Part shown: piece after piece, positions 23,140-31,284 of the stretch
Numbering within the stretch: the first letter of the stretch is position 1
Layout of the letters: every line of letters starts with the position of its first letter
Sequence record: NC_052653.1
DNA: 64,000 nt
Source: Escherichia phage vB_vPM_PD06
Strand: one strand, 5' to 3'
Notes under the pieces: model-generated
Database searches by the model: none
What the model was told of the DNA's origin: nothing
What the model saw: only the letters and a program-made list of their open reading frames with translations
Made by a program: the position numbers and the translations under genes

Positions 23140-23616
23140 ATGTCTAAACGTTTTGGTCGTAATCAAAAAAGAAAGTTAAGTGCTCAACTAGCAGCTTTGC
23201 AAAAAGAGGTTAACACTTTACAAAAAAGTGTTTGTGAACTTAAGGAACAAAACCAACTTGAAAAAGAGTGTATTCAGCTTACACAGGAAGTTATTGGGGA
23301 GTATTTCCCTTCACTAATTCCTAAGAAGGTGGCTCTTAGGGAAAATCTACCTTTTACCTTATCCTTGATGCAAACAAGGGATAGATTCCAAACTGAAACT
23401 GATGATTTGATGTTTGCAATGCATCAATTACGTGGTTTAGAATATACAGCACAAGTGGATAAACTTCGCAACATGTTATATGTGCGGGTAGAAACACCTA
23501 AAGGTGAAACAGTAGCGTTTAATTATAATTTCCAACAGCTACCTGATCATATTATTGAACAAATTTTAAAACGAGATTTTGTTCCTATGCTTGTTAAACA
23601 AATTAAGAGAGGTTGA
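23140..23616 (+). CDS. Hypothetical coiled-coil protein (158 aa)
   Basis: Six-frame ORF. Confidence 0.65.
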   Translation: MSKRFGRNQKRKLSAQLAALQKEVNTLQKSVCELKEQNQLEKECIQLTQEVIGEYFPSLIPKKVALRENLPFTLSLMQTRDRFQTETDDLMFAMHQLRGLEYTAQVDKLRNMLYVRVETPKGETVAFNYNFQQLPDHIIEQILKRDFVPMLVKQIKRG

Positions 23617-23617
23617 A

Positions 23618-26392
23618 ATGGCTAAGAAAGAGTTGAGTTTTACTCCAACAGAAGAGCAAACAGCTATTAAGGAGGCTTTTCCAGATCATCGGTTTTTAAC
23701 TATCCAAGCTAAATCTGGATCAGGAAAAACGTCAACACTTTATTTGCTGGCTAACAGTACAGAAGATCGCATTCTTTACTTAGCTTTCAATAAAAGCATG
23801 GCAGAAGAAGCACGGCGTAAGATGCCACCAAATGTAGAATGCCGTACATTGCATTCCATTTGCTATCAATTCCTGGATCATCGTTTACGTGCAAAACTGT
23901 CCCGACCAGAAGGACAGTATGTTAACGTTGCAGGTACAGGTAGTGAGATAGCAAAGAAATTTAAGATTAATAATCTTATTGATAAACGAGGGAAAACACT
24001 TTTAACTCGTGCTATGATTGGTTTAATGATCAAGCAAACCGTAGGTAAGTTTGAATTTTCGGATGATCCTTTTATCAGCCGTAAACATTTTCCTAGTGTA
24101 CATCTTGCAGATATTAAAAGAAAAGGTATTAACGAACACAAACTAATTACAGAAGTAGTTAAGTATGCAAAACAATTGTGGCGAGAGCGCATTGATCCTA
24201 ACACAGATACTTTGATGACGCATGACACCTATGTAAAATTGTTTGAATTGTCTGGTGCTGATCTTGGTTATGACATTATTTTTGGGGATGAATTCCAGGA
24301 TGTTAACCCTGCATTCTTGTCTATTCTGCGGAATGCTAAATCTGCCAAACAAATTGTGGTAGTTGGTGATGAATTCCAATGTGTATCAGAAAACACGGTA
24401 CTTAATACCGAAAATGGTCAGGTTACAATGAAAGACCTGCAAATCGGTGATAAGGTAGAGTCTTATTCTAACGGTAAAGTTACATTTAGAAAAGTAACAA
24501 ATAAGACTTTATCTACACGTACAAAAGGTAGGAATATTATTACTGCTAAAGGTAAGACTTTAGATATGACACATAACCATCGTATTTGGGCTTCACCTTA
24601 TGTTCTGAAAGATGATCAGATGGTGGTATACCTAATGTGGAGAAAAGATTTAGGTTTCCGAGTAGGGATCACTAACAAATTCGATGATAAAGAAGGTTTT
24701 TCTAAACTGGGGCAACGTACACGTTCTGAAAAAGCACAGAAGTTGTGGGTGTTGGATATTGTTGAAAACCGTGAAGCTGCTATGGAAAAAGAAATGGCAT
24801 ACAGTTTACAATATGGCATTCCTACTTGTGTATTTGAAGCAAGTTCACGCGGTATTAATCAAGAAAGGATCAACAATATCTTTGAACAATTCGGACAAAA
24901 TGGTTTTAAACTTTTAGAGGATAAAGACTATCATTTTGCTTATCCACATTGGCACAGCATCAATTGTGCAGTAGATGCAAGAAAAATGTTAACAGTGACT
25001 TTGCGAGCACAAGGTTGTAAAGGAACACAAGTTAGCTTTGAGTGGACAGAAAGTGAAATGCCAATCTATGCCTCACTCATTGAAGCAGGTGTAAGCGTAA
25101 GTGTTGCTAAATTGGAAGGTCGTTACCGTGTACGTAAATATTTCAATTCTTATCGTGAAGCATTGAGTTTTGCACAAAAGATCCTTGAAATAGTTCCGTT
25201 TGCATCTTTAAAAGAATGCATGTCCTCTGTGAACACTGCCAAATATAATTTAATTCCGGCAGCGGGTTTGTTTAAAGGCATGTCTGTGTTAGTAAAAGAT
25301 GGTGATACTGTAACGGCAGAAGAGATTGTGGACATTGTAGATAGTGAGGGTATCTATTATGATATTGAAGTAGAAGATACTGCTAACTTTTTTGGCAATG
25401 AAATTCTTAGCCACAACTGCATTTATCAATTTAGAGGTAGCTCTAATATGATGATTGAAACAGCTAAGTATGGGGCAGAGCTTCCATTAACTGCTTGCTT
25501 CCGTTTTGGCCCCAAAGTGGCAAACATTGCAAATATGATTTTAAGTGATAAAGAACCTTTGCGTCATCCTTTGGTTGGTAAAGGCTTTGATACTGTAGTA
25601 GGTAGCTACAAATCAGATGTTGTAGACTATACAAAACCTTACACTATCATCTTTCGCAAGAATTTAACCTTGCTTATGGAGGCAATGGATCGTATTGCAG
25701 ATGGGGAAGAAATTATTATTAACGTAGATACCAGGGATTTTATCTCTATGGTGGATAGTGTTAATGCCCTTCGGAGAGGAGATATTGAGAAAGTAAAACA
25801 TGAAACTGTATTACCTTACGCAGACTGGAATGAATTTGTTGAATGTGCAGAGGCTGATCCAGATGCTAAACGCTTGTTAAACATTGTAGTTTCTGGTAAG
25901 GCAAATACTATAGCACATACACTTAGAACGCATAGAAATTCTCCTACAGCAAAAGTCACACTGACTACAGCACATAAGTCTAAAGGTTTGGAGTGGGATC
26001 AGGTTATTGTTGCTAATGATTTTCCTTCCAACTATGATAAAAAGACTGGTGAATGGGTAGGACTAGAAGAGGCAGAGCGAAACCTACTGTATGTAGCGCA
26101 CACCCGTTGTGTTAAATGCTTACAATGGAATACAACCGTACAGGAGATTATAGATATCAACCGTGTTGCAACAGAGAAAGTACCCACAAGCCCTACTTTA
26201 CCGATCAATGGTATTAAACTTGGTGTATTTGGCGCTGGCACATCTCGAAAAACTGTAGAAAAATTTGTTGCAGATTCTTTTGATGGTAACTATAATCATG
26301 CACAAGCATATGAGAGTTGGCTAGAGGAAGGTGAAGGTGATTTCTTAGGTGAAATAAATCTTTTACCAGACATAAATAAACTGGTAAACTAA
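23618..26392 (+). CDS. SF1 UvrD/Rep-like DNA helicase, intein-containing precursor
   Basis: Walker A AKSGSGKT; DEFQD; motif III split (VVGDEFQ / CIYQFRGSS); motif V TTAHKSKGLEWD; motif VI LLYVAHTRC. Confidence 0.8.
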   Translation: MAKKELSFTPTEEQTAIKEAFPDHRFLTIQAKSGSGKTSTLYLLANSTEDRILYLAFNKSMAEEARRKMPPNVECRTLHSICYQFLDHRLRAKLSRPEGQYVNVAGTGSEIAKKFKINNLIDKRGKTLLTRAMIGLMIKQTVGKFEFSDDPFISRKHFPSVHLADIKRKGINEHKLITEVVKYAKQLWRERIDPNTDTLMTHDTYVKLFELSGADLGYDIIFGDEFQDVNPAFLSILRNAKSAKQIVVVGDEFQCVSENTVLNTENGQVTMKDLQIGDKVESYSNGKVTFRKVTNKTLSTRTKGRNIITAKGKTLDMTHNHRIWASPYVLKDDQMVVYLMWRKDLGFRVGITNKFDDKEGFSKLGQRTRSEKAQKLWVLDIVENREAAMEKEMAYSLQYGIPTCVFEASSRGINQERINNIFEQFGQNGFKLLEDKDYHFAYPHWHSINCAVDARKMLTVTLRAQGCKGTQVSFEWTESEMPIYASLIEAGVSVSVAKLEGRYRVRKYFNSYREALSFAQKILEIVPFASLKECMSSVNTAKYNLIPAAGLFKGMSVLVKDGDTVTAEEIVDIVDSEGIYYDIEVEDTANFFGNEILSHNCIYQFRGSSNMMIETAKYGAELPLTACFRFGPKVANIANMILSDKEPLRHPLVGKGFDTVVGSYKSDVVDYTKPYTIIFRKNLTLLMEAMDRIADGEEIIINVDTRDFISMVDSVNALRRGDIEKVKHETVLPYADWNEFVECAEADPDAKRLLNIVVSGKANTIAHTLRTHRNSPTAKVTLTTAHKSKGLEWDQVIVANDFPSNYDKKTGEWVGLEEAERNLLYVAHTRCVKCLQWNTTVQEIIDINRVATEKVPTSPTLPINGIKLGVFGAGTSRKTVEKFVADSFDGNYNHAQAYESWLEEGEGDFLGEINLLPDINKLVN
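24380..25417 (+). mobile_element. Intein (346 aa) in helicase motif III
   Basis: Starts Cys after DEFQ with N-terminal splicing blocks (CVSENTVLNTENG..., TxxH in DMTHNH); ends SHN followed by Cys of CIYQFRGSS. Confidence 0.7.
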
Positions 26393-27687: not shown

Positions 27688-28638
27688 ATGATTGCATTTT
27701 ACGCTAATAAACTGGAAGTTAAAAAAGCAGCAGAAGAGATGGGTATCCTGCATATTCTTAACGAAGCAATTCACAAGAGTTTTGGCTACACAACTGAAGC
27801 AGAAATCAATGATCTGATTCACAGTGTTAATGATTTGTTCTTCTACCCTAACTTTCTACAGCAGTTAGATGGTTGTGGATTTGAATATATGGAACTTCAT
27901 CCTGAATATACATTTATGGAAGTAACACCTGAAAATTTTCTGGAGATTATTCGTACTGAATATCTTGCTAAAGAGGATAAAGAAAAAGATATGGCTGAAA
28001 AAGTACAACTGACTGTGCATAATACGTGTTTCGTGGATACTGATGCCACGGAAGAAGATATTAGTTATCTGCTTTCCGTTTGTAATCCTCGTTGTCCACA
28101 ACCACATTGGAAAAATGCAGATCATTATCTAATGTATTCAAATGAAGAAAACATTACTTTCTTCGATGAAAACAGTGGTATTAATGGTGCACATAAGAAT
28201 TCTCCATATCGGAAAGATCGGTTTGTAGTTGATGTAAAAACATTTACTAAACTGTTTGAGGAGTATTATTCAAAAGATGAAAGTAAAACTGAATCTTCAC
28301 CAAAACCACGTTTTCGCCGACCGCGTAAACCTGTACCTACTCGTTCTGTAAGTTATGTTCGTATCATTTACACTACACAGCAGGTATATACTCTTAAGAA
28401 CGTAAGTGTTCTTACTGTACAAGAAGATGCAATTAATATTGTGCGCAATAATGTTATTACAGAGGGTATTGAGGAAAAGATTATGTCTGTTATCGATCCT
28501 AAACTTGTTATGGCAATCATTATTAATGAACCAAAAGGTGTAACAACATTGTTCCGAAATATTCATGGTACTTGGGAAACTCAAGTTGACGGTTTGACTT
28601 CTGATGGTTGTACACGTATTACCAAAAACCTTGACTAA
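27688..28638 (+). CDS. Hypothetical protein (316 aa)
   Basis: GAAGGAG RBS. Confidence 0.65.
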   Translation: MIAFYANKLEVKKAAEEMGILHILNEAIHKSFGYTTEAEINDLIHSVNDLFFYPNFLQQLDGCGFEYMELHPEYTFMEVTPENFLEIIRTEYLAKEDKEKDMAEKVQLTVHNTCFVDTDATEEDISYLLSVCNPRCPQPHWKNADHYLMYSNEENITFFDENSGINGAHKNSPYRKDRFVVDVKTFTKLFEEYYSKDESKTESSPKPRFRRPRKPVPTRSVSYVRIIYTTQQVYTLKNVSVLTVQEDAINIVRNNVITEGIEEKIMSVIDPKLVMAIIINEPKGVTTLFRNIHGTWETQVDGLTSDGCTRITKNLD

Positions 28639-28686
28639 GATCAAGGACAATCTTACGAAAAAGATTTAAAATAAAGATCCACCCTA

Positions 28687-28716
28687 AAGCCAGCTTAATG
28701 CTGGCTTTTATTTTCC
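28687..28716 (+). terminator. Intrinsic terminator
   Basis: AAGCCAGC-TTAAT-GCTGGCTT then TTATTTTCC. Confidence 0.55.
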
Positions 28717-28727
28717 ACGGAGGATTA

Positions 28728-29585
28728 ATGACCCAAAAACTATATGAGGATGTAATCGGATTCCTCGAACAAACATCCGAAGAATTTACTCGTGAAAATG
28801 CAAACAAACCTGCAATGATTGTTAATACTCACCGAGACTTACTAGCAGGTATCCTAAGCAAGCACATGGCAATGACCCATATTTTACCGGAAGATCTGGC
28901 AGAATGGCATAAAAGCGGGTATGGTCACATTCACGATTTAGATTATTTACTCTCACCTCTAACTAACTGTTGCCTGGTAAATTACCAAGATATGCTTGAG
29001 AACGGTTTCCGTATTGGTAATGCACATATTGAAAAACCAAAATCTATCGGTGTAGCAACTACTGTCCTAACTCAAATTATTCAAGCAGTGGCTTCTAGCC
29101 AATATGGTGGACAAACTTGTGCACATATTGATACTGGGCTTAGTCAATACGTTAAAGCAAGTTTTAATAAAATCTATGCTGATGTTGGTGATTATGATAT
29201 TGCTATGCGTATGGTAGATAAACAGGTGTACGATGCAATGCAAACTTTAATCTACCAGGTGAACACCCTAATGAGTGTAAATGGTCAGTCACCTTTTATA
29301 ACAATTAGTTTAGGTTTGGATACCTCTGCTTTTGGTAGAATGATCACTAAAAACTACCTAATGGTGCACAAACAAGGTTTAGGGAAAGATAGGGTAACTC
29401 CTGTATTTCCTAAAGTTATCTTCTTCTTGGAAGATGGTGTTAACATGAAAGCTGGCGATCCAAACTATGATTTGAAGCAACTGGCAATGGAGTGTTGTGC
29501 TGAACGCATTTATCCTGATTTTATCTCTGTACCTTTAAACAAAGAAGTTACAGGATCTTCAGATGGTCGCGTCACAAGCATGGGT
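28728..29585 (+). CDS. nrdD: Anaerobic ribonucleoside-triphosphate reductase, exon 1
   Basis: ATG at 28728 after GGAGGA RBS; class III RNR N-terminal half; exon ends ...VTSMG at U29585. Confidence 0.8.
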
Positions 29586-29875
29586 AAACTATAACTGCTC
29601 ATGTAAAATCTGCCTAAACGGGGGAACTCTCAACGAGACAATCCCGTGCTAAACGTAACAGAACTCCCAACACAGAAGAAGGGTTATGATTATGAGTTCT
29701 GTTACGAAATGCCTAACGACTAGCTGTGATGAATGTAGCAGCGTAGGGTGTAAGCCTATGACACCCCAAATGGTAGACATGCTTTAAGCATGAAGATATA
29801 GTCTGATCTGCATGGTGACATGCAGCAGCACGTAATGGTGCGAGAGTGGCCTTGCGAACCACTTTGAACATAATG
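29586..29875 (+). mobile_element. Group I self-splicing intron (290 nt, no ORF) in nrdD
   Basis: P1 exon CAUGGGU pairs with internal guide GCUCAUG (29597-29603) with U-G at splice site; P7 GACUA (29718-29722) / UAGUC (29799-29803); S-like AAGATATAGTC; P9 hairpin CTGCATG-GTGA-CATGCAG (29808-29825); terminal G at 29875. Confidence 0.75.
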
Positions 29876-30817
29876 TGTAGAAGTTTCTTGTCATACTATG
29901 CAACAGAGCAAGGTGAAAAATATGATGGTCGTTTCAACTTAGGCGTAGTTTCTTTAAACTTACCTATCATTGCAGCGGAGTCCCGTGAAAAGGGCATCTT
30001 ATTTACTGAACTGTTGGAACAACATATGGAGATGGCGTATAAGGCACATATGCTACGTGTTAACCGTATTAGACATACCAAAGCATCTCAAAACCCTACA
30101 TTGTTTATGGAAGGGGCTTTAGCTCGACTAGAAGCTAATGAAGAGATTGGTAAACTATTTGAAGGTGGTTATGCCTCTATTAGTATCGGTTATGTAGGTT
30201 TAGCAGAAGCTATGGAGATTTTATACCCAAATAACACCAATCCAAAAGCAATGGGTAAAAACATCCTTCAATATATGAAGGATATCTGTTGCACATTTAA
30301 AGAACGTTCTGGTTTAGCTTTTAGTTTGTATGGAACACCAGCAGAATCCTTGTGCTATAAATTTGCCAAAGCGTTAAATGATCGCTACCCTGGTTCTATT
30401 GATCGTGACTACTTGACAAACTCTTTCCATCAACCTGTATGGATGCACACTACCCCGTTCCAAAAATGGGATTATGAGGAAGGTTTTGCACAAATTAGTA
30501 ATGGTGGGAACATAGGTTATGTAGAAACACCGAACCTTAAAAATAACTTGCAAGCACTGGAAACTCTTGTAGATTATGCCTACAATAAAATTCCTTATTT
30601 TGGCGTGAACCAACCTGTAGATCAGTGTTTCAAATGTGGTTTTCATGGTGAATTTAAAGCAACGGCTAAAGGCTTCGAGTGTCCAAGTTGCGGTAATCAT
30701 GAAGAAGAATCCATATCTGTGATCAGAAGAGTGTCAGGATACCTTTCTGCCCCTAACTCTCGCCCTTATAACAAAGGTAAAATGCAAGAGGTACTAGAAA
30801 GGGAGAAACATTTTTGA
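29876..30817 (+). CDS. nrdD: Anaerobic ribonucleoside-triphosphate reductase, exon 2
   Basis: Frame resumes at CRSFLS...DGRFNLGVVSLNLP; C-terminal CxxC zinc site (CFKCGF...CPSCG). Confidence 0.8.
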   Translation, partial: CRSFLSYYATEQGEKYDGRFNLGVVSLNLPIIAAESREKGILFTELLEQHMEMAYKAHMLRVNRIRHTKASQNPTLFMEGALARLEANEEIGKLFEGGYASISIGYVGLAEAMEILYPNNTNPKAMGKNILQYMKDICCTFKERSGLAFSLYGTPAESLCYKFAKALNDRYPGSIDRDYLTNSFHQPVWMHTTPFQKWDYEEGFAQISNGGNIGYVETPNLKNNLQALETLVDYAYNKIPYFGVNQPVDQCFKCGFHGEFKATAKGFECPSCGNHEEESISVIRRVSGYLSAPNSRPYNKGKMQEVLEREKHF

Positions 30818-31284
30818 ATTACGCCGGATATGAACCTGTTGACATGCTCAACGGTGACGGTGTAAGATGCTCTTTGTGGGTGAGCGGTTGTAGCCACGGT
30901 TGCCGTGGCTGCTTTAACCAGAAAGCCTGGTCGTATAATTACGGACAAGAGTTCACTGCTGAAACATTAGATCTTATCTTGGAAGATTTATCTCGACCTT
31001 TCATTAAAGGATTAACAGTTTTAGGTGGTGAACCTCTTGACAAAGAGAACATTGACACTGTAGAGTATGTTCTTGAGAAGGTAAGAGATTGTTTTGGAAA
31101 CAAAAAAGATATTGTCTTATATACAGGATATCTTTTTGAAGAAATTCCAGAGAAAATTAAAAAACTGGTTGACATAGTGATAGATGGTAAGTATGATATG
31201 AATCAACCAACAACGAAACGTTATAGAGGTTCAGATAATCAACGAATGTGGGTTAAGAAAGACAACATTTGGGAATCTGACTAA
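30814..31284 (+). CDS. nrdG: Anaerobic RNR activating protein (radical SAM)
   Basis: NYAGYEPVDMLNGDGVRCSLWVSGCSHGCRGCFNQKAW; TTG start overlapping nrdD stop. Confidence 0.8.
   Translation: MNYAGYEPVDMLNGDGVRCSLWVSGCSHGCRGCFNQKAWSYNYGQEFTAETLDLILEDLSRPFIKGLTVLGGEPLDKENIDTVEYVLEKVRDCFGNKKDIVLYTGYLFEEIPEKIKKLVDIVIDGKYDMNQPTTKRYRGSDNQRMWVKKDNIWESD

Follow-up and report, generated by a model that had tools for sequence, protein, structure and literature searches.

The gene nrdD, which codes for a class III ribonucleotide reductase (RNR), is found in two pieces in Escherichia phage vB_vPM_PD06 (NC_052653.1), and the question raised by this locus is what the nucleotides between the two pieces are, whether they can be removed from the message and where they came from. 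The stretch of DNA analysed, called here the window, comprises 64,000 nucleotides of this phage, a myovirus of E. coli that resembles phi92 (Stephanstirmvirinae, Justusliebigvirus); over positions 28600-30900 the window shows 99.1% identity to vB_EcoM_AMO3598 and 98% to phi92. A first-pass annotation had proposed that nrdD is interrupted by a compact ORF-less group I intron. This proposal is backed by the score of a covariance model, by covariation in the structure, by intron-less alleles of the same gene and by protein identity. These four lines of evidence are independent, and they support both the intron and its junction. [quoted passage not shown]

The two nrdD pieces and their predicted product

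The two nrdD ORFs lie where they had been annotated, separated by 290 nt (Table 1); both are in frame, and the gap between them is non-coding. Joining position 29585 to 29876 gives a NrdD of 599 aa, with the exon junction …AGCATGGGT/TGTAGAAGT… (here and below, a slash within an exon sequence or peptide marks the join). The junction proposed earlier, ...VTSMG/CRSFLS..., which was said to restore a continuous class III RNR, is the one found in nature: intron-less alleles (JohannJBalmer, muut and many more in the genus) read …AGCATGGGT/TGCCGTAGTTTC…, equal to the predicted exon-exon join, and are joined exactly at GGT/TGC. The same alleles fix the 3′ boundary of the intron at the G of position 29875. 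The predicted spliced protein is letter-for-letter that of the uninterrupted genes of EC_OE_11 and BME3 (100% identity), and it equals AMM43526.1, the joined CDS that the authors of ECGD1 drew across an identical 290-nt intron. In a scan of IMG/VR, the junction peptide was found at two loci only, and neither of them has the intron.

Alignment with other NrdD proteins had been suggested as a check, and it came out free of gaps at the junction: the spliced protein aligns end-to-end with T4 NrdD (PDB 1H78; residues 5-604, E = 2e-164), taking in the segment MGCRSF, whose Cys corresponds to T4 position 290. Counted on this alignment, the intron site lies between Gly289 and Cys290 in T4 numbering. 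We take Cys290 of T4 NrdD to be the active-site cysteine on the finger loop. In Pfam, the spliced protein matches NRDD (PF13597, 3e-166) and the glycyl-radical domain (PF01228, 1e-25). The locus thus has what is expected of a class III NrdD: both domains in full length (NRDD and glycyl-radical), the Cys of the active site and, next to the gene, that of the NrdG activase.

It might be argued that the intron does not splice, and that NrdD is made as two polypeptides that assemble (compare the split NrdA of Aeromonas phage Aeh1) or that the gene is a dead pseudogene, either of which we consider most improbable. The physical ORF of exon 1 does extend two codons into the gap, ending at UAA 29592-29594; the last three intron bases form an in-frame AUG immediately before exon 2, in a frame open from GTG 29846; and two separate CDSs are annotated in many GenBank records. 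However, the AUG at 29873 has no Shine-Dalgarno sequence 5′ of the start, the break falls within the finger loop of the active site, the next residue being the Cys aligned with T4 Cys290, and the protein encoded by the exons is 100% identical to that of intact alleles, while all the ribozyme helices described below are intact and covarying. A stop codon shortly inside the intron is typical of phage introns. Here, the in-frame UAA would halt translating ribosomes immediately ahead of the guide.

An assembly or sequencing artefact, a frameshift or an insertion of another kind (intein, group II intron or IS) has a practically negligible probability, the bare fact of a split gene being all that speaks for it. 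The 290-nt sequence recurs in three independent GenBank genomes, with close variants in more than 15 others; an intein is at odds with a non-coding gap; and, among insertion types, the match is to the group I model only. No other Rfam family was found in the 64 kb, even at E <= 0.05, and no tRNA genes were found in the 64-kb window. The G+C content is 44% in the intron vs 38% in the exons and in the whole window.

The intron is already known at the level of annotation. The records of phi92 (gp192A; NC_023693 / FR775895) and ECGD1 (gp200A; KU522583) carry joined nrdD CDSs, labelled as a "spliced variant". In both phages the genus, the site and the junction are the same as here; ECGD1 has the identical 290-nt allele, whereas the intron of phi92 is 279 nt long, resulting from an independent deletion of 490 nt. 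A published biochemical test of this intron was not found in the accessible literature, nor was a dedicated description of the nrdD-Cys290 intron family in the searchable literature.

Two neighbouring genes deserve a comment of their own. An ORF of 316 aa just 5′ of nrdD (27688-28638, +) bears the name "ribonucleotide reductase" in the records of phi92 and SD2; it has no Pfam match at E <= 0.01, and the name looks like an annotation carry-over. Farther upstream, a UvrD-like helicase gene (ORF 23579-26392, +) appears to contain an intein of 346 aa at window positions 24380-25417. The candidate begins with Cys, ends with HN and is followed by a +1 Cys, and it splits helicase motifs (host motif VVVGDEFQ/C…, insert end …ILSHN/CIYQFRG), with Pfam scores slightly under threshold (Intein_splicing 33.2 vs 35.8, Hint 28.5 vs 29.7). 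If it is an intein, the locus has another selfish element 3.3 kb upstream of nrdD.

Fold of the putative ribozyme and kinship with the T4 nrdD intron

The comparison with the Rfam group I covariance model, also suggested beforehand as a check, was favourable: the intron matches RF00028 (Intron_gpI) with 70.4 bits, the gathering cut-off being 50, and E = 8e-16. The 5′ boundary implied by the Rfam alignment, which starts at 29540 and places its first hairpins in exon 1, was dismissed, as the intron-less alleles fix the intron at 29586-29875. The helices assigned are collected in Table 1.

Table 1. Features of the nrdD locus and of the predicted intron, in window coordinates
Feature	Position	Strand	Remarks
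nrdD exon 1	28728..29585	+	286 codons; GGAGG Shine-Dalgarno 28719-28723; aligns to T4 NrdD residues 5-289
Predicted group I intron, 290 nt	29586..29875	+	Rfam RF00028; T4 sunY-like (P7.1/P7.2, P9.1/P9.2, without P2); without endonuclease ORF
P1	29579..29603	+	exon CAUGGGU (29579-29585) with internal guide GCUCAUG (29597-29603); 7 bp; U.G at 5′ splice site; in-frame UAA 29592-29594
Candidate P10 guide CUAUA	29589..29593	+	may pair with exon-2 UGUAG (29876-29880); putative register
P3, 5′ strand	29609-29614	+	from pair counts in homologs
P4	29618-29623 / 29642-29647	+	from pair counts in homologs
P5	29628-29631 / 29635-29638	+	from pair counts in homologs
P6	29648-29649 / 29711-29712	+	region 29648..29712
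P6a, 13 bp	29654-29666 / 29694-29706	+	27-nt loop holding the deletion scar
Endonuclease 5′ UTR / RBS remnant GAAGAAGGG	29675..29683	+	deletion junction between 29683 and 29684
Endonuclease ORF 3′ remnant …YDYEFCYEMPND and stop	29684..29723	+	last 12 codons, 40 nt; stop UAG 29721-29723
P7 pseudoknot	GACUA 29718-29722 / UAGUC 29799-29803	+	encloses P7.1, P7.2, P3 3′ strand, P8 and J8/7
P7.1	29723-29727 / 29738-29742	+	inside P7 pseudoknot
P7.2	29746-29751 / 29761-29766	+	inside P7 pseudoknot
P3, 3′ strand	29772-29777	+	inside P7 pseudoknot
P8	29778-29782 / 29788-29792	+	inside P7 pseudoknot
Conserved element AAGAUAUAGUC	29793-29803	+	seen in the sequence
P9, GUGA loop	29808-29825	+	3′ domain (29808..29875)
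P9.1	29828-29831 / 29838-29841	+	3′ domain
P9.2	29845-29849 / 29859-29863	+	3′ domain
Omega-G (terminal guanosine)	29875	+	3′ splice site
nrdD exon 2	29876..30817	+	313 codons and stop; first codon is the Cys aligning with T4 NrdD Cys290; holds Gly-radical domain
nrdG (radical-SAM activase)	30814..31284	+	Fer4_12 1e-41, Radical_SAM; overlaps nrdD stop codon

The individual elements that the first-pass annotation had named are all there: the P1 of seven pairs with the terminal U of exon 1 opposite G, the two P7 strands, the S-like element, the P9 hairpin with its GNRA loop, and the terminal G, whose position agrees with the intron-less alleles. The conserved group I core, P3-P4-P5-P6 and P7-P8 with a P3/P7 pseudoknot, also forms with all its helices.

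For comparative analysis, homologous introns were extracted from nine phages (phi92, cardinal, SD2, phiWec187, nepoznato, YP-6, TH18, JSE and T4), and the window was aligned with seven of them using MAFFT, giving an alignment of eight sequences. This alignment misplaces P6a of TH18 and T4 and the P9.1/P9.2 region of T4; helices were also scored sequence by sequence, and the P6a cells of TH18 and T4 were entered as gaps in the pair count. Its T4 row carries a wrong 3′ exon, which makes the P10 cells of that row meaningless. On this alignment RNAalifold independently recovered P1, P3, P4, P5, P7.1, P7.2, P8, P9 and P9.2, to which P6/P6a, the P7 pseudoknot, P9.1 and P10 were added as the full structure for the pair count. 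Standard pairs occupy 97.0% of the cells of the full structure, vs 29-46% when partners are slid by 1-3 columns, and 23 of the 80 pairs are double-changed, vs 0-4 in the slid versions; none of 500 shuffles matched any of five pairing measures. Folded singly, the intron of the window forms the same helices, with a minimum free energy of -94.2 kcal/mol (z = -3.7). Two alternatives offered by RNAalifold, a hairpin AGAU…GUCU in place of P7 and a pairing of 29827-29836 with the 3′ splice region in place of P9.1, were dropped in favour of the covarying canonical helices.

The changes themselves are instructive. P1 is paired in 100% of its cells in the eight sequences; a C:G pair of the window becomes G:C in JSE, where a codon change in the exon is matched in the guide, and variants with U.G or A-U occur in T4 and nepoznato. 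P6a of JSE has three double compensatory changes, from CGUAACAG/CUGUUACG to CAUAGCGG/CCGCUAUG. In TH18, a U-A pair of P7 is replaced by C-G (GACUA/UAGUC to GACCA/UGGUC), and P8 exists in four different versions among the homologs. These compensatory changes show that the RNA fold is under selection.

The architecture is that of the T4 nrdD (sunY) intron, with P7.1/P7.2 and P9.1/P9.2 present and covarying and only five bases between P1 and P3. We presume that the sunY type corresponds to subgroup IA2. The two introns have a homologous ribozyme, an identical guide GCUCAUG, the same set of helices and the same host gene; BLAST gives about 80% identity over about 60% of the length, and the aligned core is about 70% identical. 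They differ in location, since the T4 intron lies about 100 codons upstream (…AYE/YEVNTL…) and T4 is uninterrupted at MG/CRS. They also differ in the ORF: that of T4 is the GIY-YIG enzyme I-TevII in the P9.1 region, not an HNH ORF in P6a, and P6a of T4 is short. The T4 intron is 1033 nt long, with its 3′ splice site at …CAUUG/AUGAAG according to the T4 protein alignment. The 5′ exon of T4 ends in UAUGAGU vs CAUGGGU in the window, and these similar ends would fit an ectopic insertion guided by P1 pairing, possibly by reverse splicing.

By analogy with known group I introns, splicing would proceed as follows. Before splicing, P1 would form in the pre-mRNA between the internal guide and the 3′-terminal 7 nt of exon 1, placing a U.G pair at the cleavage site. 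The P3-P9.2 core would then fold, and a guanosine bound in P7 would attack the 5′ splice site. Finally, the terminal G at 29875 would dock, a short P10 would hold exon 2, and the ligation of the exons would give the 599-aa NrdD.

The P10 step involves the start of exon 2. This start reads TGT AGA AGT TTC in 8/8 intron-bearing E. coli-phage alleles and in 0/8 intron-less ones, in which TGC or TGT is followed by CGT or AGG. The synonymous recoding linked to the intron, from TGC CGT to TGT AGA, would serve P10, immunity to the endonuclease, or both. Vibrio phage F102 has retained UGCC in the exon, and its intron carries GGCA immediately 5′ of the guide, which looks like P10 covariation in a register different from that of the window. 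Among the E. coli-phage introns there is no clean covariation in P10; JSE is mismatched at one position, and the pairing could take either of two registers. The association would be explained just as well by immunity of the endonuclease site or by hitch-hiking alone.

The deleted endonuclease gene

The intron of the window contains no ORF of at least 60 aa. The earlier statement that it has no homing-endonuclease ORF stands, as the only ORF is one of 33 aa (29686-29787), which was rejected as spurious, having no Pfam match and being out of frame with the endonuclease remnant. Whether the intron is a minimal ancestral form or a remnant left after endonuclease loss had been left undecided. Of these two origins the second has stood, and the first has not: the sequence indicates that the intron is a remnant, formed by a 479-nt deletion that kept the ribosome-binding site (RBS) and 12 codons of the endonuclease gene.

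The evidence comes from longer alleles. Those of SD2, phiWec187 and nepoznato have an insert of 479 nt between matching flanks, encoding an ORF of 169 aa, and the intron of the window is that of SD2 minus its positions 99-577. Of the lost 479 nt, 9 come from the leader and 470 from the ORF, which spans 510 nt. The flanks are identical to the long allele at 98/98 positions on the left and 190/192 on the right, with no microhomology at the junction, and from this near-identity we infer that the deletion was recent. The two substitutions break no pairs, and the 13-bp P6a is whole after the deletion. The ORF remnant overlaps the 3′ strand of P6a, P6, J6/7 and the 5′ strand of P7; the tail of the ORF survives because it is also a P6a/P6/P7 strand of the ribozyme.

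Phage phi92 went through a different deletion, of 490 nt, with CTG microhomology at the ends. It keeps GGTACTG of the leader, which is missing from the window, and lacks the P6a bases TTATGATTATGAGTTCTG, which are kept in the window. The long form contains everything that either short form has; no other form can have given rise to both, and the deletions in the window and in phi92 are therefore independent. The allele of cardinal, of 280 nt (also in OZ035770 / OZ035799), is of the phi92 deletion type, with one G added and another replaced by A. The replacement produces a C.A mismatch in the 3′ strand of the shortened P6a, and this allele suggests that the peripheral stem is drifting after the loss of the ORF.

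The opposite order of events, in which the 290-nt intron would be an ancestral minimal form never invaded and the long alleles would have arisen by later insertion of the endonuclease, is in our view very unlikely. It is true that ORF-less relatives with no trace of an endonuclease exist, such as the 252-nt intron of TH18, with a short P6a as in T4, and that the T4 endonuclease, I-TevII, sits elsewhere, in P9.1; these two facts imply that the ribozyme core and the ORFs have separate histories. Yet the window keeps the RBS of the ORF and its last 12 codons and stop, in the ORF frame, and phi92 keeps a different subset, so that the long form alone can be the common source; the near-identical flanks likewise speak for a recent event. 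Moreover, diverged homologs of the HNH ORF occur in JSE (about 51% aa identity) and in Vibrio phage F102 and end at the same P7 position, which implies that the association of ORF and intron is much older than the deletion in the window. The notion of an ancestral minimal form may apply elsewhere in the family, to TH18, and not to the window.

As for the enzyme that was lost, the ORF of the long alleles (169-173 aa) is of the HNH type, lies in the P6a loop and ends in …EMPND and a stop within P7. It matches I-HmuI (PDB 1U3E) over its full length at 9e-9 and the HNH family phrog_59 at 8e-34, and in Pfam the ORFs of the relatives score slightly under the curated cut-offs for HNH_3 and I-HmuI_NUMOD. 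By its sequence similarity, the lost ORF is identified as that of an I-HmuI-like HNH homing endonuclease. The introns of I-HmuI and I-HmuII (in the DNA polymerase gene of Bacillus phages SPO1 and SP82) resemble the present case in the type of enzyme, but differ in host gene, phage group and ribozyme lineage. I-HmuI and I-HmuII act as nickases, and the homing they drive is accompanied by co-conversion of exon sequence (PMC2988022). Another parallel is the intron of T4 nrdB, also a group I intron in a phage RNR gene with an HNH gene crippled by deletion (truncated, inactive I-TevIII), although the gene and the intron sequence are different and the ORF relic is larger. In that intron, splicing was retained after the endonuclease gene was damaged by deletion (PMC2988022).

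An additional observation concerns the control of the endonuclease. In the HEG-positive alleles and in phi92, the RBS GGGGGU can pair, by eye, with ACUCCC at the top of P6a (about 78-83 and 96-101 of the SD2 intron); the window keeps the 5′ half at 29663-29668. Such pairing could sequester the RBS and thereby control translation of the endonuclease, as is reported for T4 intron and mob ORFs.

Allele states, spread among phages and meaning

Presence and absence were counted in 52 Justusliebigvirus records covering at least 80% of the locus. The intron is present in 21, and the rest appear intron-less (about 31/52). Among the former, 5 records (SD2, arall, VEcB and phiWec187) have an intron of 769-770 nt with the 169-aa ORF, AMO3598, ECGD1 and pEC-M2929-1AR.1 have the 290-nt type of the window, and 13 records have the phi92 type of 279/280 nt, which makes 16 HEG-less records vs 5 HEG-positive ones in this genus.

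The same MG/CRS site is occupied in other phages: in Phapecoctavirus (nepoznato), in Vequintavirus (YP-6, TH18), in the T4-related Krischvirus JSE and in Vibrio phage F102. The HEG-positive introns (SD2, arall, VEcB, phiWec187, nepoznato, YP-6, JSE and F102) share with the window both the site before the Cys codon and the ribozyme. Those of E. coli phages are 77-99% identical to it in the core. All of them still encode the endonuclease that the window has lost. Exon 1 of nepoznato is like that of phAPEC8, a member of its own genus, but the first 30 nt of its exon 2 agree with Justusliebigvirus and not with phAPEC8, and this part of exon 2 is best read from the sequence as a 3′-biased co-conversion tract. 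[quoted passage not shown] Because the endonuclease is lost, the intron of the window can no longer home alone and would be passively inherited; it could be mobilised only if a co-infecting HEG-positive relative supplied the enzyme.

Two peculiarities of the database records were met in this survey. Exon 2 of the F102 nrdD is annotated as two CDSs, broken at 2786-2791 by a stop codon between …SYHVNTET and MSPFQKIDIE… amid a conserved NrdD segment. An error in sequencing, recoding or decay of the gene could account for this. Besides, about 12 "Campylobacter phage" records with C. jejuni as host (MG065639, MG065645, MG065656, MG065689, MG065662 and others) are 97% identical to the E. coli phage locus or to rV5-like phages, and their host labels are probably wrong or reflect contamination.

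Taken together, these alleles can be arranged as a life-cycle series of a homing endonuclease at one site, apparently not described before. A sunY-type ribozyme would have been relocated to the codon aligned with T4 Cys290, possibly by reverse splicing; it would then have gained an I-HmuI-like HNH gene in P6a and spread over at least five phage lineages with 3′-biased co-conversion, and repeated independent deletions of the HEG would have followed, exon 2 being recoded for P10, for immunity or for both. We put this series forward tentatively and give it a chance a little short of even.

For annotation, the consequence is that nrdD should be given as one joined CDS, join(28728..29585, 29876..30817), in place of two fragments or of a pseudogene. 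In many sister records the gene is still split, or its pieces are called hypothetical. Nothing categorically new is involved, as phage RNR genes are a classic home of group I introns and the decay of the endonuclease is an expected stage of the homing cycle. A review of 2010 saw at that time no convincing evidence of such elements crossing phage clusters (PMC2993671). What that review lacked is documented here, namely one intron/HEG unit moving between unrelated phage subfamilies. Moreover, one genus offers four allele states (empty, HEG-positive and two independent HEG deletions), all of them in culturable E. coli phages. We think that this makes it a convenient system for measuring homing and co-conversion, the cost of losing the intron and the mobilisation of ORF-less introns in trans.
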